From a virus (taxonomy: Duplodnaviria; Heunggongvirae; Uroviricota; Caudoviricetes), in the IMG/VR virus record IMGVR_UViG_2579778745_000003, positions 1 to 27,110 of that record: a stretch of 27,110 nt of DNA. One strand, given 5' to 3'. Made by a program: the position numbers and the translations under genes. Position 1 is the stretch's first letter. Each line of letters opens with the position of its first letter. Under the pieces are notes generated by a model that made no database searches, had not been told where the DNA came from, and saw nothing but the letters and a program-made list of their open reading frames with translations. Below are positions 5,009 through 17,001 of this stretch, one piece after another.

Positions 5009-5146
5009 CTTGGATTTTACCTTCCTCCCCTACTCCCGAAAAAAATAAAAAAATTGCTTGTCACGAGAAAGTCAACAAGTGACTTTCAATAAAATCTCTT
5101 CCGAAAAGGGATTCACACAAGTGCCTTGTGTTTAAGGAAGAGTAAA

Positions 5147-6853
5147 TTGAGTAACTTACGCGAATACCAGAATCGTATTGCAGATATCGCAAAACGCTCT
5201 AAAGCTGTGCTTGGCTGGGCAAGCACTGCGCAGTTCGGTACTGATAACCAATTCATTAAAGATGATGCCGCGCGTGCCGCATCTATCCTTGAAGCTGCAC
5301 GTAAAGACCCGGTTTTTGCGGGTATCTCTGATAATGCCACCGCTCAAATCGCTACAGCGTGGGCAAGTGCACTGGCTGACTACGCCGCAGCACATAAATC
5401 TATGCCGCGTCCGGAAATTCTGGCCTCCTGCCACCAGACGCTGGAAAACTGCCTGATTGAGTCCACCCGCAATAGCATGGATGCCACTAATAAAGCGATG
5501 CTGGAATCCGTCGCAGCAGAGATGATGAGCGTTTCTGACGGTGTTATGCGTCTGCCTTTATTCCTCGCGATGATCCTGCCTGTTCAGTTGGGGGCAGCTA
5601 CCGCTGATGCGTGTACCTTCATTCCGGTTACGCGTGACCAGTCCGACATCTATGAAGTCTTTAACGTGGCAGGTTCCTCTTTTGGTTCTTATGCTGCTGG
5701 TGATGTTCTGGACATGCAATCCGTCGGTGTGTACAGCCAGTTACGCCGCCGCTATGTGCTGGTGGCAAGCTCCGATGGCACCAGCAAAACCGCAACCTTC
5801 AAGATGGAAGACTTCGAAGGCCAGAATGTACCAATCCGAAAAGGTCGCACTAATATCTACGTTAACCGTATTAAGTCTGTTGTTGATAACGGTTCCGGCA
5901 GCCTACTTCACTCGTTTACTAATGCTGCTGGTGAGCAAATCACTGTTACCTGCTCTCTGAACTACAACATTGGTCAGATTGCCCTGTCGTTCTCCAAAGC
6001 GCCGGATAAAGGCACTGAGATCGCAATTGAGACGGAAATCAATATTGAAGCCGCTCCTGAGCTGATCCCGCTGATCAACCACGAAATGAAGAAATACACC
6101 CTGTTCCCAAGCCAGTTCGTTATCGCGGCTGAGCACACGGTACAGGCGGCGTATGAAGCACAGCGTGAATTTGGTCTGGACCTGGGTTCCCTACAGTTCC
6201 GCACCCTGAAGGAATACCTGTCTCATGAACAGGATATGCTGCGTCTTCGCATCATGATCTGGCGTACTCTTGCGAACGACACCTTTGACATCGCTCTGCC
6301 GGTTAACCAGTCCTTTGATGTATGGGCAACCATCATTCGTGGCAAATTCCAGACTGTATATCGCGACATTATTGAGCGCGTTAAATCTTCTGGTGCGATG
6401 GGGATGTTTGCTGGTGCTGATGCAGCATCTTTCTTCAAACAGTTGCCGAAGGATTTCTTCCAGCCAGCCGAAGACTATATCCAGACTCCGTATGTTCACT
6501 ACATCGGTACCCTGTTCGGTAACGTGAAAGTGTACGAAGTACCTGCTGGTATTTGTAAGAACTTAACGACAGAGAACATTCAGTTCAGCTCGATGGATGT
6601 GCTGTGCTACGTCCGTGATGAAAATCCGGGTAAAGCAGGCTTCGTGACTGGTGATGCTGTCCCGGCCATCCCGTTCCAGCATCCGACCACTCCGGCGCTG
6701 GTCAACCGTACCACGCTGTGGGGTTCGGCTATCAACGATATGCACCCACGCAACGGCGCTGATTACTTCACTCGTGTAACGCTGACAATGGCCAAAAAAG
6801 GCGGGCTTAACTTCATTAGCGGCGACACGATTGATGCCGGTGACTCTGAGTAA
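5147..6853 (+). CDS. Major capsid protein candidate (P1 gene 23-like). ORF track start is TTG 5126; I prefer TTG 5147 after AAGGAAG
   Basis: Position right after parS as in P1; large protein; first late gene with its own upstream region. Functional assignment rests on synteny. Confidence 0.5.
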   Translation: MSNLREYQNRIADIAKRSKAVLGWASTAQFGTDNQFIKDDAARAASILEAARKDPVFAGISDNATAQIATAWASALADYAAAHKSMPRPEILASCHQTLENCLIESTRNSMDATNKAMLESVAAEMMSVSDGVMRLPLFLAMILPVQLGAATADACTFIPVTRDQSDIYEVFNVAGSSFGSYAAGDVLDMQSVGVYSQLRRRYVLVASSDGTSKTATFKMEDFEGQNVPIRKGRTNIYVNRIKSVVDNGSGSLLHSFTNAAGEQITVTCSLNYNIGQIALSFSKAPDKGTEIAIETEINIEAAPELIPLINHEMKKYTLFPSQFVIAAEHTVQAAYEAQREFGLDLGSLQFRTLKEYLSHEQDMLRLRIMIWRTLANDTFDIALPVNQSFDVWATIIRGKFQTVYRDIIERVKSSGAMGMFAGADAASFFKQLPKDFFQPAEDYIQTPYVHYIGTLFGNVKVYEVPAGICKNLTTENIQFSSMDVLCYVRDENPGKAGFVTGDAVPAIPFQHPTTPALVNRTTLWGSAINDMHPRNGADYFTRVTLTMAKKGGLNFISGDTIDAGDSE

Positions 6854-11215: not shown

Positions 11216-12061
11216 TCACCCTCTGAATCCTGCCGGTATACCCCATTGTTCGTTATCTTTATTTTTGGCTAAAACCGCATTAAGAGCTTCGTTTACCGTC
11301 ATGCAATGCGGCAGATTATCGAAGTTTGATATCCCGCCAATATCAGGAGAACGCTTGTCCTTCAGGTAAGCATATTTCCGCGCTGCCGCCTCTACTTTCT
11401 GCTTGAACTCATGTTTTTGAGCGCGTTTTTTGGATAACCGCAGATTGTCAGCCTTTGCTTTTGCCTCAGCGATCCATGAAGTCAATTTTTTGAGTCTGGT
11501 CGTTCCGGCACCGCCGGAAACTGATCTTTTTATTTTTTTAACTTGTGACTTCTTATTCTTTATTGCCACGTCATCCTGACAGGGGGAGGGGGTATCATTT
11601 TGACATGGGGGTGTGGATAAAAAATTAAATAAAGCCAATGTCTTAGCGAGAACAGCTTTAACCTTGGTTGCCGCTGAAGAGATCTTTAATTTGCTTTCAA
11701 TCAGCGCATTTTTGGCTTGTTGTGCGAAGGCCAAAAAGGATGGTGTAAACCGGTACAGGTTAGCGCGACGTTCACGGTGATCGCCGATAACAATCTCTAC
11801 AGACAGAATTCCTTTGTTTACAGCTTCACGGAATGCACGAACGACGGTTGATTGGCTATAACCAGTTTCTGCCGCGATCAGGCGGTGAGGCTTGTGAATG
11901 AAGTATTCACTAGTTGTTGCCGCGAGATTTGCACATTGCGACAGGATATGCCCGGCGCTACGGGATAGACCGGAGTGTGTTACAAAGCAGGCCAATTCAT
12001 AGCCAGAAAAAGTAAAATCGCTCATCGTTATACAGCTCAGGAAAGTGACTTTAGCCAGCAT
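11216..12061 (-). CDS. repL: L-replicon (lytic) replication protein RepL candidate, 281 aa
   Basis: Directly downstream of kilA on the same strand, as in the P1 kilA-repL operon; the 281-aa length matches my recollection of P1 RepL. Confidence 0.6.
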   Translation of the reverse strand: MLAKVTFLSCITMSDFTFSGYELACFVTHSGLSRSAGHILSQCANLAATTSEYFIHKPHRLIAAETGYSQSTVVRAFREAVNKGILSVEIVIGDHRERRANLYRFTPSFLAFAQQAKNALIESKLKISSAATKVKAVLAKTLALFNFLSTPPCQNDTPSPCQDDVAIKNKKSQVKKIKRSVSGGAGTTRLKKLTSWIAEAKAKADNLRLSKKRAQKHEFKQKVEAAARKYAYLKDKRSPDIGGISNFDNLPHCMTVNEALNAVLAKNKDNEQWGIPAGFRG

Positions 12062-12090: not shown

Positions 12091-12891
12091 TTAGCGCGTT
12101 GCCGCGACAGGTACCAGCACACCAGCATCAAGCAATCGCTTCATCAGCCACTGCTGACCTTTGCCGGTTATACGAGTCGTGAAAGAAATCCTGCTTCCAT
12201 TGCTTGTATCGATCACGGTTTCTTTAAGGGTGAAATACCCACGGGATATGTATTCTTGTTTGGGGACGTTCCTGCGTTCACCGGTTGCGATCAGAATTCC
12301 GTTATCACGCAACCAGGTGAAGAGATAGTTTTGGCCCAGGCCGAGCACTTTGGCATAGTTGCCGATTAGAACTCCGCTGGCGGTAGCAACGCGTTCGGCG
12401 AATTCGACTTTAGGTGCATCCATAAGCATTTTTTGCTCCAGCCGTTGCTTTTGCTCTGCCAGGTCGGCAGCCAAACGGAGAGCTTCAGGGAGACTCTGCG
12501 GAATAGCAGGTTGTAATCTTCCGGCTCGATAGTCGATAAATGTCTGGTTTACCTTCAGCCGAAACGCGGGAGAAATCCAGCCTGCGTACTCCACAGCGAG
12601 CAATTCATGGGCAAAAGTGCCGCCGCCACGGCCTTCGAAAGAAACTATGCAATTCTGCATAGTTTCTTTTTCAAGCTCTTCGATGAGCTGTTTGGCTGAC
12701 AGCGTTCTTAGCCATTGAGCTGGCGCTTTATGGGCACCGAGTCCGCTCGCTCTGTGTAGAGCATTAAGGTTGTAACGGCCAGCGCGGTCGGTCGTAATTT
12801 CAACACCACAAATAACAGGCAGAGTGGTTGAAGGATCGACATTTTGATGAAGGTTTGATATATTCATATCCGCATTGAATGTTTGTTGCAT
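12091..12891 (-). CDS. kilA: KilA: N-terminal KilA-N domain plus C-terminal KilAC (antirepressor-type) domain, 266 aa
   Basis: Domain pattern read from the translation; GGAGA RBS; C1 operator upstream; synteny with repL. Confidence 0.8.
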   Translation of the reverse strand: MQQTFNADMNISNLHQNVDPSTTLPVICGVEITTDRAGRYNLNALHRASGLGAHKAPAQWLRTLSAKQLIEELEKETMQNCIVSFEGRGGGTFAHELLAVEYAGWISPAFRLKVNQTFIDYRAGRLQPAIPQSLPEALRLAADLAEQKQRLEQKMLMDAPKVEFAERVATASGVLIGNYAKVLGLGQNYLFTWLRDNGILIATGERRNVPKQEYISRGYFTLKETVIDTSNGSRISFTTRITGKGQQWLMKRLLDAGVLVPVAATR

Positions 12892-12960: not shown

Positions 12961-12977
12961 AAATTTATTAGAGCAAA
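12961..12977 (-). promoter_or_regulatory. C1 repressor operator Op53-like: TTTGCTCTAATAAATTT on the - strand, 16 of 17 matches to ATTGCTCTAATAAATTT
   Basis: 17-mer read directly, about 70 bp upstream of kilA; the C1 operator consensus is from memory. Confidence 0.75.
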
Positions 12978-13022
12978 TTTTTCTGGCCCGATCCAGATCG
13001 GGTTGGTCGATCTGCTCAGAAA

Positions 13023-13048
13023 CCTGCCAGTTTGCTGGCAGGTTTTTT
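13023..13048. terminator. Hairpin CCTGCCAG-TTTG-CTGGCAGG just downstream of ant; T-tract strong on +, weaker on -
   Basis: Perfect 8-bp stem; next to a GATC-rich palindrome CCCGATC-CA-GATCGGG (12987-13002). Confidence 0.45.
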
Positions 13049-13054
13049 CTTTTG

Positions 13055-14098
13055 TTAACCTATTGCTACTGGTTTTAACAAACCAGCATCAAGTAGCTTG
13101 CGAGTTAACCACTGCTGGCCTTTACCCGTTAATTGGGGCGTCAGCCGTATCTGGTAGCCATTTTCATCATCCAGCACCACTTCTTTCACCGTGAAATATC
13201 CGGCGTTGATGTACTGCTGGCGCGGTACGTTTTTGCGCGCACCAAAAGCCATGAGAATGCCGTTCTGGCGCAACCATGAGAAAAGGGCGTTTTGCTTAAG
13301 TCCAACGACCTTTGCAAAGTTCCCGATCAGGATTCCATTAGCCGCTGATACCCGGTCGGCAAAATCGACTTTAGGGGCTGCGGCCACCAGCTGTTGTTCC
13401 AACTGCATTTTCTGTTCTGCCAACTCGGCAGCCAGGCGTAGAGCTTCTGGTAATGTTTGGGGGATCGATGGGGTAGGTGAGTTTGCCTGCTGCAATTCTT
13501 CCAGTTTGTCGATCAGCGAACGGCGGACCGCTTTCGATTCGCGCGCGGCGACTCGCAGGGCTTGTTTGTAGGTCATGGTTATGACAACCATAGGCGTACC
13601 GCCACCTGGCGGCACGGTTGCACTTTTTGTGTAACCGTCCTCACCTTCTAATTCGTCGAGTATTTTTTCGATGAATTTGTTGTTCCGAACCTCTGGTTCC
13701 CCACATAACTTACGCGCTTCATTGACCATCTTTAACAGTGTCAGGCTGTCGATTGTGTCTCCGGTGGTGGGGATGACATTCACGGCTGGTGCTGACGTTG
13801 CTGAAGCAACAGGTGCTGGTTTTTTAACATTCAAATTATTACTGGTCATTCTATGTGCCTCCTTTCTCATTTCTGCTGCCACCGTTGCGTAACGTAGACG
13901 TCCTTGTTCAATCAAATAATCCCTGATCTCGGCTATCAGTAGCCTGTTGATCACAGCCTTATCTGTTCGGGTATAAAAACGCCTGGTTATCATGAAATAG
14001 TTGGCAATTGCGCCGGGGATCTCCCGTGTCGGCATACAGGCAGTATGCAGGGCGATCGCTTCGGCTATTTCATTACGGGTGACGAGAGGTTTTTTCAT
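13055..14098 (-). CDS. ant1: Antirepressor Ant (Ant1; Ant2 would be an internal in-frame start), 347 aa, with C-terminal KilAC domain
   Basis: C-terminal 150 aa clearly paralogous to KilA's; AGGGGG RBS; start overlaps the icd stop (ATGA); immI gene order. Confidence 0.8.
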   Translation of the reverse strand: MKKPLVTRNEIAEAIALHTACMPTREIPGAIANYFMITRRFYTRTDKAVINRLLIAEIRDYLIEQGRLRYATVAAEMRKEAHRMTSNNLNVKKPAPVASATSAPAVNVIPTTGDTIDSLTLLKMVNEARKLCGEPEVRNNKFIEKILDELEGEDGYTKSATVPPGGGTPMVVITMTYKQALRVAARESKAVRRSLIDKLEELQQANSPTPSIPQTLPEALRLAAELAEQKMQLEQQLVAAAPKVDFADRVSAANGILIGNFAKVVGLKQNALFSWLRQNGILMAFGARKNVPRQQYINAGYFTVKEVVLDDENGYQIRLTPQLTGKGQQWLTRKLLDAGLLKPVAIG

Positions 14099-14316
14099 AA
14101 AACCCCCTGAACGTCAGCAGAGAAGGGGAGGTTCCAGTAACTAAGTGAATTGCGCGAGTTAGTAGAAAAACGGGCAGTAAAAATGCAGGGACCATCAGGC
14201 AATTGAGAGCGTGCTTCGTCTTCAGTTGCTGCGATAACGAAGTGATAGTGGTGTTTTTTACAGGAATAGAAACGCCAGATGAATTCTGGGCGTGCGCAAG
14301 GATTGGCATTAACCAT
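14095..14316 (-). CDS. icd: Icd-like small protein (interference with cell division), 73 aa, translationally coupled to ant
   Basis: 73-aa ORF whose stop overlaps the ant start, with GAGG RBS; matches the P1 c4-icd-ant layout. Confidence 0.6.
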   Translation of the reverse strand: MVNANPCARPEFIWRFYSCKKHHYHFVIAATEDEARSQLPDGPCIFTARFSTNSRNSLSYWNLPFSADVQGVL

Positions 14317-14349
14317 AGTTACGGCCTCACAATCAGGTTTAACAACCTG

Positions 14350-14560
14350 CTACCCGCTGCTAAACAGGTGGCAGGACGTGACGGGGTTAGCAGACTGGCG
14401 ATTGTGAAACCAGCAGGCCGAAGCCTCCCCATCACGCCCCACCATAATTTGGGCGTAACGCGGTTTTACGGACACAAAAATACCGCAATATCGGATATCT
14501 GCGGCTGTCCGCACAATCATTCAGGCTGCTAAACCCGGTCGCAGAATTTGCTACGACGGC
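14350..14560 (-). ncRNA. c4: c4-type antisense RNA and its target region; exact ends not resolved
   Basis: Between Op51 and icd; GCTGCTAAAC occurs twice on + (14356, 14527) with its complement GTTAGCAG at 14387, as expected for antisense/target elements. Confidence 0.4.
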
Positions 14561-14630
14561 GGAACTATAAGCCTGAACGATTAAAAGGTCAATATGATGC
14601 GAAAAGATAGCATTCGTGACTTAAAAATAC

Positions 14631-14647
14631 AAATTTATTAGAGCATT
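14631..14647 (-). promoter_or_regulatory. C1 repressor operator Op51-like: AATGCTCTAATAAATTT on the - strand, 16 of 17 matches
   Basis: 17-mer read directly at the head of the c4-icd-ant unit. Confidence 0.75.
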
Positions 14648-14743
14648 GTTTGTTTAATAAACGCACAATTGGATCTAATAACCTCTTTTTTTTAAAGGCG
14701 AAAATATGTACCCTAAATGAGTTATAAGGCAGGCGAGGTTATA

Positions 14744-15235
14744 ATGAGAAAACTATTACTACCGTTATTATTTATGGCTGGGACTGTTAATGCAGCATCA
14801 AGCGTAAAGGAGATTTGTACCGATTATACGAAATACCTTGGGCACGTTTACGGATTTGCTGTCAGTGAAGACGAATCCATGCGCAAGAAGTTACTGTCAG
14901 ATATGAAGCGCCTTAAACTTTCTGAAGCGATGGTGCAGCAGGAACTGTATAAAGTCTCAACCAACGCAAATGCTAAATACCAATATTCTCGCCTATTAAA
15001 CCCCGATGCAAATGAGATCAATCGAAGCACTTTCGATTATATGGTAAAGGCATGCGAAACCGCTCCTGATTTTGCTATCCCTAGCTGGGGTGTGCTGGTG
15101 GCGAGCAATGCCGTTAATAAAGAAGATGTTGGAAGAAATGGCATTGACTCAATCAGAAATGCCCCAGGAATGCGCCATCAAAACGTGCAGGGTACGCTTG
15201 AAGAACGAGCCAGGGGGCCGGGTGTAGCTCCATAA
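14744..15235 (+). CDS. Secreted protein of unknown function, 163 aa from ATG 14744 (ORF track start 14717); C-terminus carries a motif shared with Sit
   Basis: Signal peptide MRKLLLPLLFMAGTVNA-AS; GAGG RBS 6 nt upstream of 14744; AT-rich codon usage. Confidence 0.7.
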   Translation: MRKLLLPLLFMAGTVNAASSVKEICTDYTKYLGHVYGFAVSEDESMRKKLLSDMKRLKLSEAMVQQELYKVSTNANAKYQYSRLLNPDANEINRSTFDYMVKACETAPDFAIPSWGVLVASNAVNKEDVGRNGIDSIRNAPGMRHQNVQGTLEERARGPGVAP

Positions 15236-15323
15236 TTTAATGAATAATATTAAATTCTCTGGGCATAGTGGATCTAACAATATGGACTATGCCTATAATA
15301 TCTAAAACAAAAAGGATAAAAAT

Positions 15324-15830
15324 ATGAAATTATATAAGTCATTGTATAGCTTTTTATTAATGTCCTCTTTTCTGCCATTATCAGCAATGGCAGGTTCTAC
15401 CGTTTGGACGGTAGGAGGTGAGCAAGGGTGGAGAGAAATCTCTGCAACCAATGACGATGGTTATACAATTAACTTTTCTTGTGATGCTGGAGCAAGGGAA
15501 GGTTCCGAAGATCATATAGCTGGAAGAAATTTGTATGTAAGTGGAGGGAAAGAGAATGCTGATTTTTCTACACGCGACACAATTTCTCGTAAAGCTGATG
15601 TAATTACCTTAATTGTTGGTCCGGATAGCTTTAATATTGGTACGCAAAACACTGCTCCAAATCGTAGGGAATGGTATTCTTTTTGGAAGTCAGCGTCAGC
15701 CACAAAAGAAAAAAACATGGATGTATATATCGGATCGCGTCGAATTACATCATTCTCTCTTGATGGAATTTCAAGTATTTACAAGGAAGCTAAAAATGAT
15801 GGATGTTTAAAGCAAGATGACGGTGAATAA
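15324..15830 (+). CDS. Secreted protein with two Cys, unknown function, 168 aa
   Basis: Signal peptide MKLYKSLYSFLLMSSFLPLSAMA-GS; AAGGA RBS. Confidence 0.7.
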   Translation: MKLYKSLYSFLLMSSFLPLSAMAGSTVWTVGGEQGWREISATNDDGYTINFSCDAGAREGSEDHIAGRNLYVSGGKENADFSTRDTISRKADVITLIVGPDSFNIGTQNTAPNRREWYSFWKSASATKEKNMDVYIGSRRITSFSLDGISSIYKEAKNDGCLKQDDGE

Positions 15831-17001
15831 AGTGAAGGATATTAAAAAACTTGCACTTGGCTCAGTAAGCGATCTCTATAATAGAGATTCAAATATTACC
15901 TGGCGTGATAATTTAAGTAAAATCAAAATCGCAGGATATACATCGGCAAGTGATTTATTAAAATCAGAATATGCTTCTAATAATTTGGTTAGACAGTTGG
16001 CAGAACTGCAAAAAAACGCAATCATTCCATCGTATAGAGAACATATGGCAAACTTGCAAGAACAGTTAAGAATAGGGCGGCTAGCTCAAGAACAAATAGC
16101 AAGATTGAATTTGCAATCGTTACTTAGTGATTCTGTTAAAAAACAGCTTGCGAACATGACGAGCTTGAGAAGAATAAATAGCAAGCATCGTGAATTTCTT
16201 GAAATTCTACAGAAACAGGCCAAGGTTTATCCCCCGCATGATGCAAATAAATACATTCAAATGCTAAGGAAGCAGGCAGAAATTGCTATGCCGTTACGAA
16301 ACCAGTTCGAGATGCTTAATAAGCAAGCTGGTTTAAATAACATGCAAGCAATACTTAATGAATTGCGACAAAATGTAAGTCATAAGATAGATTTAAACAA
16401 TGAAATAAAAGAATCATTAAAACAATATACCCTAGCGCAAAAGGCTTCATTACATCAAATAATGGAGCAAAGTCTTTCATCAATTGCACAGGCTTATGTC
16501 GAAGGTGCTATTGAAACATCTCACAACGAAAGTGATGTTCAAGACAAAGGATTAAATAAATCCAGTTCGACGTTCATTGATTCATTTAAGTCGCTCCCTC
16601 ACCCGCTTCAGTTTATTATTATGTGGCTTTTAACAGAAGTGGTGCTTGGCGCTATTGCTGATTATGCAAAAGAACAAATCTTATCGCAAATACACAAGAC
16701 AGAATCATATTCTGTATCCCTATATGAGGATGCACCAATATCAAAACAAAAATTAATTAAAGAAAACACAGAAATTAAGTGGGAAGATCTCAATGGTTTT
16801 AGGTTTATAACTGGTGATAACGTAAGATTACATGTCAGTCCTTCTTTAAATAGTGAAGTGATTGAATGCATTGGCAAAAACACAATTGTTGCTATTTTAG
16901 ATAAGAAAGATCGTCAATGGCTTTACGTGCAGGTTAAATCAGGGGATGAGTTTATTACTGGTTGGATTACACGAACATACACAAAGCCTCTTAAGGCTTG
17001 A
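15817..17001 (+). CDS. Coiled-coil protein with one hydrophobic segment and a C-terminal bacterial SH3 (SH3b)-like domain, 394 aa
   Basis: Repeated LxKQA heptad-like segments; hydrophobic LQFIIMWLLTEVVLGAIA; C-terminus ...GWITRTY resembles SH3b; overlaps the previous gene by 14 nt. Confidence 0.65.
   Translation: MTVNKVKDIKKLALGSVSDLYNRDSNITWRDNLSKIKIAGYTSASDLLKSEYASNNLVRQLAELQKNAIIPSYREHMANLQEQLRIGRLAQEQIARLNLQSLLSDSVKKQLANMTSLRRINSKHREFLEILQKQAKVYPPHDANKYIQMLRKQAEIAMPLRNQFEMLNKQAGLNNMQAILNELRQNVSHKIDLNNEIKESLKQYTLAQKASLHQIMEQSLSSIAQAYVEGAIETSHNESDVQDKGLNKSSSTFIDSFKSLPHPLQFIIMWLLTEVVLGAIADYAKEQILSQIHKTESYSVSLYEDAPISKQKLIKENTEIKWEDLNGFRFITGDNVRLHVSPSLNSEVIECIGKNTIVAILDKKDRQWLYVQVKSGDEFITGWITRTYTKPLKA

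Follow-up and report, generated by a model that had tools for sequence, protein, structure and literature searches.

An exported-protein cassette facing the predicted C1 operator Op51 of a P1-like phage-plasmid appears to be an allele of the variable sim locus and may be transcribed largely independently of C1

In the window, by which we mean the whole stretch of 27,110 nucleotides that was analyzed, positions 14560-14750 are the canonical immI control region of a P1-like phage-plasmid. The immI unit on the minus strand and its control elements are as follows.

13055-14316, minus strand: icd (14095-14316, 73 aa) and ant1/ant2 (13055-14098, 347 aa), open reading frames with about 96% identity to P1.
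14364-14449, minus strand: gene for the C4 antisense RNA (Rfam RF01695, 69.6 bits; P1 annotation).
14518-14570, minus strand: c4-a1b1 leader element with the decoy targets of the C4 RNA (Rfam RF03163, 55.5 bits, above the gathering score).
14564-14592, minus strand: constitutive promoter P51b (P1c4), TTGACC-17-TATAGT (promoter scan 10/12; PWM score 14.2; P1 annotation).
14604-14632, minus strand: C1-sensitive promoter P51a (P2c4), −35 TTGTAT at 14632-14627 and −10 TATCTT at 14609-14604 (positional homology to the P1 annotation; PWM score 9.3).
14631-14647, minus strand: C1 repressor operator Op51 (Oc4), AATGCTCTAATAAATTT, matching the consensus at 16 of 17 positions and identical to the annotated P1 Oc4.

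Operators were scored against the asymmetric 17-bp C1 consensus ATTGCTCTAATAAATTT, and a search of the whole window with up to three mismatches returned two matches, Op51 and Op53 (12961-12977), where 0.12 would be expected. By its sequence, its position and its identity with the P1 site, 14631-14647 is a predicted C1 operator, located on the minus strand exactly where the initial annotation had placed it. The site lies upstream of c4 and is overlapped by the −35 hexamer of P51a, and the GenBank remark on P1 Oc4 names the expression of c4 alone as controlled. C1 would accordingly be expected to act at this single asymmetric operator, over the −35 of P51a, with the constitutive P51b downstream, and both promoters would drive a1b1-c4-icd-ant on the minus strand. 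The proposal that Op51 heads the c4-icd-ant unit is confirmed by the order of the elements, in which the Rfam matches to C4 and c4-a1b1 are followed by icd and ant1.

On the other side of the operator, the following features lead to the right boundary of the variable locus.

14648-14669: hypervariable spacer from Op51 to the conserved leader, containing the predicted PsimA −35.
14650-14679, plus strand: predicted weak sigma-70 promoter, the equivalent of P1 PsimA mapped by alignment, with −35 TTGTTT at 14650-14655 or, as in the P1 annotation, TTTAAT at 14653-14658, and −10 TCTAAT at 14674-14679.
14670-14743, plus strand: conserved gene 1 leader, with the Shine-Dalgarno sequence GAGG at 14735-14738, nearly invariant in 49 unique sequences.
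14744-15235, plus strand: gene 1, an exported 163-aa 'SimA-domain' protein with a signal peptide and two conserved cysteines.
15234-15299, plus strand: intergenic hairpins and TATAAT (15294-15299), comprising an AT-rich hairpin (15234-15256) and a 10-bp stem (15260-15269/15286-15295) that includes GGCATAGT/ACTATGCC.
15324-15830, plus strand: gene 2, an exported 168-aa protein of PHROG 3429, with a 28%-identical partner in the Ro157c2YLVW-type cassette.
15817-17001, plus strand: gene 3, 394 aa, or 389 aa if the PGAP start at 15832 is used; its N-terminal part is long and helical, it has one hydrophobic helix, and its C-terminal domain is SH3_3-like.
17106-17124, plus strand: late promoter LPsit, AAATGACAACTCGTAGAAT (P1 and P7 annotation; late-promoter pattern search), the right boundary of the variable locus.

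The initial annotation had put the first cassette gene about 100 bp from Op51, in agreement with the 96 nt that separate the operator from the gene 1 ATG (14744); an upstream in-frame ATG at 14717 lies 69 nt from it. The cassette was also correctly described as AT-rich, with a GC content of 34-42% against 46-53% in the flanks. Among the three cassette proteins, none scored above threshold in Pfam, the sub-threshold matches being PTPlike_phytase for gene 1 and SH3_3 for gene 3 (26 bits, just under the cutoff of 27); none matched a PADLOC model at E values up to 0.1 or an NCBIfam family, and the PHROG matches were to families of unknown function. The AF2 model of gene 1 is all-alpha (pLDDT 82), with no fold match in structure searches, and that of gene 3 has a pLDDT of 38.

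Comparison with P1 suggests that the cassette is a variant of the known variable sim locus of that phage, in which the divergent layout is already known. The initial description of one C1 operator between two divergent units was right, and this layout is not peculiar to the cassette: P1 has the same operator and promoters (Oc4, P2c4, P1c4 and the predicted PsimA; AF234172, 48108-48223), with c4, icd and ant in the same order and orientation. Alignment shows that Op51, the entire intergenic region and the beginning of gene 1 are common to the window, P1 and Ro157c2YLVW. P1 and the window have the same leader, the same Shine-Dalgarno sequence and the same initial ~45 codons in gene 1, and the 22-nt spacer differs at four bases (14648, 14662, 14663 and 14668). 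Whereas gene 1 is of full length in the window, P1 carries a 52-aa simA, which is a remnant of the 5' part of that gene, and then simB and simC. The P1 simABC set occupies the same slot between Op51 and LPsit, is likewise divergent from c4 and low in GC, has the same head and encodes only products with signal peptides, but SimB and SimC have no detectable counterpart in genes 2 and 3, with no similarity in BLASTP.

Homology to P1, P7 and Ro157c2YLVW resumes at 17095-17103. Between Op51 and LPsit, we found about six cassette classes among 62 complete loci, all encoding proteins with signal peptides, and the full sim head was present in 263 of the 570 PLSDB plasmids with a match to the immI leader. 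The P7/SJ46/RCS47-type loci (upf50.5 lipoprotein and upf50.0 DUF5384) have the same Op51 and LPsit boundaries, exported products and divergent orientation, but lack the sim head, their homology to the window stopping at 14645, inside the operator. The sim region has been listed as hypervariable and low in GC (PMC9603915, PMC6906374). In the portions of the literature available to us, an exclusion phenotype is documented for P1 sim only and not for the cassette analyzed here. A CRISPRi screen (PMC10695390) has shown the sim genes of P1 to be dispensable for lytic growth.

The arrangement also resembles the moron or lysogenic-conversion slots of lambdoid prophages, which are low in GC, interchangeable and non-essential, have a weak promoter of their own and lie between two conserved transcription units. 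Unlike these, the cassette slot keeps a conserved 5' head, consisting of the leader and the signal peptide, across alleles, and a terminator scan found no terminator bracket at it.

The initial annotation reasoned that, if the cassette promoter overlapped Op51, the cassette would be under repression in the lysogen and would come on at induction. Under such a bidirectional operator, C1 would also repress the cassette, which would come on with the early genes and have a lytic role; a cargo locus thought to serve the lysogen (superinfection exclusion) would then function specifically at induction, with Op51 as a switch shared by the antirepressor and the cargo. The operator edge is indeed only 3-6 bp from the predicted −35, and because TTGTTT starts 3 bp from that edge, bound C1 could hinder RNA polymerase or its UP-element contact. 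Conservation is strong in the leader between the −10 and the ATG, with the −10 block of PsimA identical across 67 loci, and P1 has at least one other C1 operator between divergent units, the monovalent O26 (Op82) between gene 26 and pmgL. However, in the three other P1 cases that we checked, the operators overlap a hexamer of the promoter that they control (OrepL the −10 of PkilA, Oc4 the −35 of P2c4, and O26 the annotated hexamers of the pmgL promoters), whereas Op51 ends at 14647, outside both predicted PsimA hexamers, and overlaps only the promoter on the immI side. The PsimA equivalent has a PWM score of 4.7, which is at noise level (408 plus-strand sites score at least 4), on the same scale on which P51b and P51a reach 14.2 and 9.3. 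Moreover, its predicted −35 is hypervariable and differs among relatives, and nearly half of the P1-like elements, those of the P7 type, differ right after Op51, with a 282-nt gap to the first gene and no promoter candidate that overlaps the operator.

A second, partial operator had been suggested at about 14673-14684. The sequence concerned, GGATCTAATAAC, is located at 14671-14682 and, taken as a C1 operator (14669-14685), matches the consensus at 11 of 17 positions. Because the window contains 56 sites with at least 11/17 matches, compared with ~62 in Markov simulations, 14669-14685 is not operator-like beyond chance, and the second operator is best regarded as a chance match. GGATCTAATAAC includes the predicted plus-strand −10 as well as a Dam GATC site (14672); another GATC is present at 15271. 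A plus-strand C1 site at 14648-14664 was likewise considered and rejected, with 10/17 matches in the window and 8/17, as read by eye, in another haplotype.

For expression, P1 simA served as a proxy, having the same head as gene 1 but belonging to a different element. In RNA-seq of wild-type P1vir infection (PMC8201110, Table S1), the log2 values at 10 and 30 min were 2.7 and 8.5 for simA, 4.7 and 11.1 for simB, and 5.9 and 12.1 for simC, as compared with 8.5 and 11.2 for icd, 10.0 and 12.7 for ant1, 8.5 and 12.8 for kilA, and 3.1 and 10.9 for the late gene pmgC, all of them fold changes over a near-zero baseline that are not length-normalized and of unconfirmed strandedness, from infection samples only. 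At 10 min, when the C1-controlled operons were fully on, simA was the fifth lowest of the phage genes, which argues against induction together with the early genes. P1vir carries a substitution in the neighboring P2c4 region (PMC8198154). In these data, the only expression data at hand, the shared promoter region behaves as a weak promoter that is not C1-early.

Given the absence of hexamer overlap, the noise-level promoter, the unconserved −35 and the low simA level at 10 min, the proposed control of the cassette through Op51 is not supported, and we consider a bidirectional operator unlikely. The evidence points away from a switch shared by the antirepressor and the cargo, and the layout is best seen as the ancestral, already annotated arrangement of P1. 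Loss of the repressor probably does not switch the cassette on. We consider it reasonably likely, and the best explanation of the observations, that the cassette is a sim-locus allele that faces Op51, is transcribed weakly and largely independently of C1, and carries envelope or exclusion-type cargo. The allele starts on the plus strand in the low-GC slot between Op51 and LPsit, where the sets of exported proteins found in P1-like elements are interchangeable. Under this model, weak transcription would come from the PsimA equivalent, the poor sigma-70 promoter just past the operator, and perhaps also from an internal one at the TATAAT before gene 2, and the late rise of the cassette RNA during lytic growth would be due chiefly to amplification of the template. 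If its transcription is weak and largely independent of C1, the cassette would therefore behave as lysogenic-conversion or exclusion-type envelope cargo and not as a C1-controlled early lytic unit. The analysis establishes where and what Op51 is, the immI elements, the shared sim head, the boundaries of the locus and the export of its products; where the promoters lie, whether C1 is dispensable for control and what the cassette does are inferred. Apart from regulation, the useful yield is a precise map of the slot where P1-like phage-plasmids swap cassettes of exported proteins, the recognition of P1 simA as a relic of a longer conserved gene, and an unexplained hypervariable patch beside the operator.

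In the parts of the P1 literature that our search covered, we found no mapped transcription start for PsimA, which is a GenBank prediction, and no mention of Op51, P51a or PsimA. A further candidate −10, TATAAT at 14740-14745, corresponds to that of P1 PsimB and overlaps the gene 1 start codon (ATGAGT-17-TATAAT, PWM score 10.2). The leader RNA (14670-14765) folds less stably than its shuffles (z = +1.99). The sole structural feature there is an 8-nt pairing, ATAACCTC/GAGGTTAT, which would cover the Shine-Dalgarno sequence.

Among 60 IMG/VR loci, nucleotide diversity was 0.18 in the spacer next to the operator, compared with 0.05 for the 4-fold synonymous sites of the neighboring genes and 0.004 for Op51, and some positions of the 22-nt patch have three or four alleles. 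GTTTGTT, GCATGCT and AATTGTA are examples of its haplotypes. Because the spacer haplotype is not associated with the cassette class, the patch is not merely a flank of the cassette. One could imagine that Op51 is two-faced and that its coupling to the cargo is tuned by lineage via this patch, which varies several-fold more than synonymous sites and could set whether the plus-strand promoter falls under the C1 footprint; some P1-like elements would then express the cargo in the lysogen and others on derepression only. We regard such tuning as very unlikely. In a rare haplotype (...ATTAATTGTATAATAAAT), the sequence makes a TATAAT for which the spacer and −35 would cover Op51.

Alternatively, the cassette could be a late unit, transcribed once the lytic cycle is past its midpoint by a route that does not involve a canonical Lpa promoter, such as read-through of plus-strand late transcripts from the gene 23-bplB operon or a non-canonical late promoter, with a role in virion release or in guarding the dying cell against superinfection. 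The rise of the sim genes from 10 to 30 min (5.8-6.4 log2) is near that of late genes (~7-8) and above those of early (~3-4) and plasmid (~1-2) genes (PMC8201110), and the cassette runs in the same direction as the late pmgC-tub-pmgB-sit operon and lies immediately upstream of it. However, many weakly expressed genes that are not late (res, cin and insB) show a similar rise in the same data, and transcripts reading through would need to traverse ~4 kb of antisense repL-kilA-ant-icd. On the plus strand, LP23 (5077), LPsit (17106) and LPs (25336) are the only matches to the late-promoter pattern (AA[AG]T[GT]ACT[TA]-N4-TAnnAT, with at most one mismatch in the box), and no Lpa late promoter was found in 14600-17100, the palindrome included; the minus strand has one match, with one mismatch, at 5139-5157. 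A late unit of this kind thus seems quite improbable to us. Separately, the sim rise of ~6 log2, which is nearer to that of late than of plasmid genes, may be more than amplification of the template can account for by itself.

Silencing of the AT-rich cassette by an H-NS-type factor, with expression under special host conditions and no relevance of Op51, would agree with the GC contrast to the flanks, with the description of the locus as a low-GC recent acquisition (PMC6906374) and with the very low early level of the P1 counterpart; we give it little credence as a separate account, and it is compatible with, rather than exclusive of, the preferred reading of a weakly transcribed, largely C1-independent sim allele.

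The region between genes 1 and 2 had been thought to contain a regulated internal promoter, on the basis of a palindrome adjoining a TATAAT. The elements were located exactly as described (GGCATAGT at 15262-15269, ACTATGCC at 15286-15293 and TATAAT at 15294-15299), with no −35 present. Taken further, the palindrome (15262-15293) could be an operator through which a dimeric regulator acts on an internal promoter for genes 2 and 3, given that the −10 hexamer, itself perfect, directly follows a perfect 8-bp inverted repeat and that the stems are identical in 11 copies while the loop and the downstream bases vary. By itself, however, the palindrome says little because about nine perfect 8-bp inverted repeats with loops of up to 20 nt are expected in a window of this size; its half-sites lie 24 bp apart, center to center, with a 16-bp gap; the best PWM score for the TATAAT is 7.0, with a 19-nt spacer; the cassette contains no regulator gene; and the gene 1-gene 2 spacer of the Ro157c2YLVW type has no analogue. 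An operator of this kind is therefore highly doubtful. The stems, being invariant in the 11 copies, offer no covariation, and the spacer of the Ro157c2YLVW type is unrelated. The 15260-15295 hairpin was also considered as an intrinsic terminator and rejected because no T-run follows the stem; the terminator scan was silent here. The RNA of the whole gene 1-gene 2 spacer folds at −16.8 kcal/mol, better than 200 of 200 shuffles (z = −2.95), and its 10-bp stem and second hairpin would be explained no less well by an intercistronic mRNA element than by an operator.

The window, 27 kb long, is P1-like phage-plasmid DNA (Punavirus), reversed with respect to the P1 reference and with 95-97% identity to P1, P7, RCS47, SJ46 and others over 13000-19500, the central block excepted. 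Its relevant features are as follows.

11216-12061, minus strand: repL
12091-12891, minus strand: kilA
12961-12977: Op53/OrepL, match to the C1 consensus with one mismatch
13055-14098, minus strand: ant1/ant2
14095-14316, minus strand: icd
14328-14335, 14358-14364, 14368-14444, 14511-14518 and 14526-14532, minus strand: C4 loops and targets, from covariation across 79 loci
14364-14449, minus strand: C4 antisense RNA (Rfam, 69.6 bits)
14518-14570, minus strand: c4-a1b1 leader (Rfam, 55.5 bits)
14631-14647: Op51/Oc4, match to the C1 consensus with one mismatch
17156-17722, plus strand: pmgC (tub, pmgB and sit are likewise on the plus strand)

A search of the whole window for the C1 consensus ATTGCTCTAATAAATTT, allowing up to 3 mismatches, returned only these two operators, with one mismatch apiece, against 0.12 matches expected. 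The initial annotation, which placed a C1 operator at 14631-14647 at the head of the c4 unit, was largely correct: Op51 is identical base for base to the annotated Oc4 of P1, the former Op51, described there as a 'monovalent C1-controlled operator' that 'controls expression of c4'. The reported distance of about 100 bp to the first cassette gene also holds, with 96 bases to the gene 1 ATG at 14744, which is the PGAP start in the near-identical plasmid pUTME-12-1; an alternative in-frame ATG upstream, at 14717, is the start given for simA in the P1 record. Equally, the cassette is AT-rich as described (GC 34-42% vs 46-53% in the flanks). In the GenBank record of P1, the simA, simB, simC operon likewise diverges from c4, and Oc4 lies between P2c4 (former P51a, with its -35 overlapping the operator) and a 'predicted sigma 70 promoter PsimA'. 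The operator and divergent cassette are the ancestral P1 arrangement, annotated before.

The proposal that the cassette is repressed by C1 and activated at induction is not supported by the geometry of the predicted promoters, by conservation or by the available expression data. In window coordinates, PsimA as annotated consists of a -35 TTTAAT (14653-58) and a -10 TCTAAT (14674-79); an alternative, better spaced reading joins TTGTTT (14650-55) to the same TCTAAT over 18 nt. Op51, ending at 14647, overlaps a PsimA hexamer in neither predicted reading and would cover about -56 to -40 as counted from the predicted start, whereas hexamer and controlling operator overlap in the P1 cases examined (OrepL and the PkilA -10, Oc4 and the P2c4 -35, O26 and the pmgL promoters). 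On the position-weight scale, the minus-strand c4 promoters P51b and P51a score 14.2 and 9.3, and predicted PsimA scores 4.7; the window holds 408 plus-strand sites with scores of at least 4. Transcription from the top plus-strand candidate, ATGAGT-17-TATAAT at 14717-14745 (score 10.2; 'PsimB' in P1), would start downstream of the gene 1 ATG. Between Op51 and gene 1 the consensus scan reported no promoter on the plus strand, and a pattern built from six annotated P1 late promoters detected no Lpa-type late promoter ahead of the cassette, its plus-strand matches being limited to LP23, LPsit and LPs.

Diversity was measured in 60 IMG/VR loci, chosen by the conserved leader and not by the operator. 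Op51 is essentially invariant (pi 0.004), and the leader with the first 36 codons of gene 1 is unusually uniform (pi of 0.005 at 4-fold sites), whereas the 22-nt patch at 14648-14669 has a pi of 0.18, rising to 0.29 in the first nine nucleotides (14646-14654), vs 0.05 at the 4-fold synonymous sites of icd, ant1, kilA and pmgC. Pi exceeds 0.3 at 7 of the 22 patch sites vs 7.3% of synonymous sites (binomial P 7e-4, only approximate because patch sites are linked). Several patch positions carry 3-4 alleles, and there are at least 14 haplotypes, none tied to a cassette class; the TG at 14651-52 is near-invariant, with a single T-to-C change at 14651 among 49 unique sequences. In P7-type loci, the first ~8 nt past the operator are variable too. 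This hypervariable patch beside Op51, a minor new point, encloses the predicted PsimA -35, and its variability argues against a conserved promoter-operator geometry.

Expression of the sim head, the leader and gene 1 beginning shared with P1, can be followed in the only relevant dataset found, the P1vir infection RNA-seq of PMC8201110 (Table S1; infection samples only, at 10 and 30 min), whose library is of unstated strandedness and which gives fold changes relative to a practically empty baseline, without length normalisation. At 10 min in the wild-type host, the C1-controlled operons were high (log2: icd 8.5, ant1 10.0, kilA 8.5, repL 7.5, ban 6.9) and late genes low (pmgC 3.1, tub 3.5); simA, simB and simC stood at 2.7, 4.7 and 5.9, simA being the fifth lowest among roughly 110 phage genes listed, and reached 8.5, 11.1 and 12.1 at 30 min (PMC8201110). 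With C1 control not operating, the head promoter thus lies outside the early units, at least in P1vir, which carries a substitution in the adjacent P2c4 region (PMC8198154). The simA < simB < simC gradient suggests internal starts.

Within the leader, which overall is not unusually structured (z = +1.99), ATAACCTC (14678-14685) is fully complementary to GAGGTTAT (14735-14742), which includes the gene 1 Shine-Dalgarno sequence; this pairing could cover the ribosome-binding site, but only in transcripts that begin upstream of 14678. The T8 run at 14686-14693, at the predicted head transcription start, shows a run-length polymorphism, with T7 in 9 of the 49 unique relatives.

The second partial operator suggested between Op51 and the cassette is not borne out. 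The string in question, GGATCTAATAAC, lies at 14671-14682, two bases left of the position first given, and 14669-14685, aligned on its CTAATAA core, matches the C1 consensus at 11/17 positions, the chance level: 56 sites in the window are at least as good, vs ~62 in first-order Markov simulations. The sequence thus rejects it as a C1 operator. The segment is invariant in 67 relatives, as is the entire stretch from 14670 to the ATG, and contains both the predicted -10 and a Dam GATC. Separately, TGGATCTAA occurs in the window only at 14670-14678 and 15269-15277, both on the plus strand, 74 nt upstream of the gene 1 start and 55 nt upstream of the gene 2 start, with a Dam GATC inside each copy (chance ~0.03); the second copy is weakly conserved, reading GGACCTAA in 3 of 11 related cassettes.

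In the gene 1-gene 2 spacer, the palindrome GGCATAGT (15262-69)/ACTATGCC (15286-93) and the TATAAT (15294-99) are where the initial annotation put them, but the regulated internal promoter proposed there lacks a credible -35 (top score 7.0 with a 19-nt spacer in the position-weight scan). We read the element as an intercistronic mRNA hairpin, possibly plus a weak internal promoter. The spacer RNA folds at -16.8 kcal/mol (z = -2.95; none of 200 shuffles as stable) into an AT-rich hairpin at 15234-56 and a second one whose 10-bp stem, 15260-69/15286-95, closes a 16-nt loop; the stems are invariant in all 11 cassette copies, with variation in the loop (15273 T/C) and past the TATAAT. The palindrome is less likely to be a DNA operator; chance alone would give ~9 perfect 8-bp inverted repeats (loop 3-20 nt) in the window. 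An intrinsic terminator is ruled out because no T-run follows the stem. The Ro157c2YLVW-type spacer holds no analogous element.

The slot that the cassette occupies is known to be hypervariable, and the cassette is one of its alleles; two papers already count simABC among the hypervariable, low-GC regions of P1-like elements (PMC9603915; PMC6906374). An alignment that also included P7 shows the operator and the complete intergenic region, together with the start of gene 1, to be common to the window, P1 and Ro157c2YLVW. Pairwise BLAST homology to the window ends at 14883 in P1, at 15223 in Ro157c2YLVW and at 14645, inside the operator, in P7, and resumes in all three at 17095-17103, just ahead of the late promoter LPsit (17106-17124). 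Among 570 PLSDB plasmids matching the immI leader, 263 have the full sim head, and in most of the rest, as in P7, the break falls at the operator; 35 PLSDB plasmids carry at least 80% of the cassette. From 82 IMG/VR loci with the Op51 pattern plus reference loci, 62 complete loci were classified: gene 1 with a 158-aa partner (21), P1 simABC (14), P7 upf50.5/upf50.0 (14), the window type with genes 1, 2 and 3 (10), and rarer forms. Proteins with signal peptides or membrane segments are encoded in every class.

P1 SimA (52 aa) agrees with residues 1-45 of the long ORF in the window, beyond which substitutions that create TAA end it, so simA is a 5' relic of the longer conserved gene 1; most head-bearing relatives have gene 1 at full length (163-224 aa). 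The relic status of simA is a second minor new point. Between window 14744-14888 and positions 2218-2384 of the P1 locus (L001), homology runs to about 14888, after which simB begins in P1.

The gene 2 product is exported, and a 28%-identical counterpart adjoins gene 1 in the Ro157c2YLVW class. The gene 3 product is helical over a long N-terminal part, contains a single hydrophobic helix and carries an SH3_3-like domain at its C-terminal end (26 bits, under the cutoff of 27). PADLOC models matched none of the three cassette proteins. From the exported products and the position, we infer that the cassette may be envelope-acting or exclusion-type cargo, like sim. Gene 3 (15817-17001) has variants of 394/389, 352 and 325 aa (L006, L008 and L039 among the relatives), with differing N-terminal parts and an invariant C-terminal SH3-like domain; Citrobacter, Salmonella and Yersinia have relatives, carried on contigs about as large as P1-like elements. 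The 3.3-kb slot version between Op51 and LPsit in IMGVR_UViG_2913167280_000003 (L025) has a 154-aa ORF (MKRLQAFKFQLRQDG...) ahead of gene 3, presumably resembling an IS-associated protein, and gene 2-like ORF fragments after it.

Beside pmgC, an 11-bp perfect inverted repeat, CTCGTAGAATC (17115-17125)/GATTCTACGAG (17139-17149), extends from inside the LPsit -10 to the pmgC ribosome-binding site and would fold into a hairpin where the late transcript begins. A sub-threshold isrK Rfam match (43.7 bits; gathering score 50) at 14476-14557, minus strand, overlaps the c4 leader. In a comparison of 79 P1-like loci, the b' loop of C4 RNA (CACAATC, CGTAAGT, CACTAAC, CATTCGT, CACAAGT) covaries perfectly with the b1/b2 targets, and the a' loop (CTGCTAA, CTGTCAA) with the a1/a2 targets; the 8 loop/target combinations seen imply that immI specificities far outnumber the classical P1/P7 pair.
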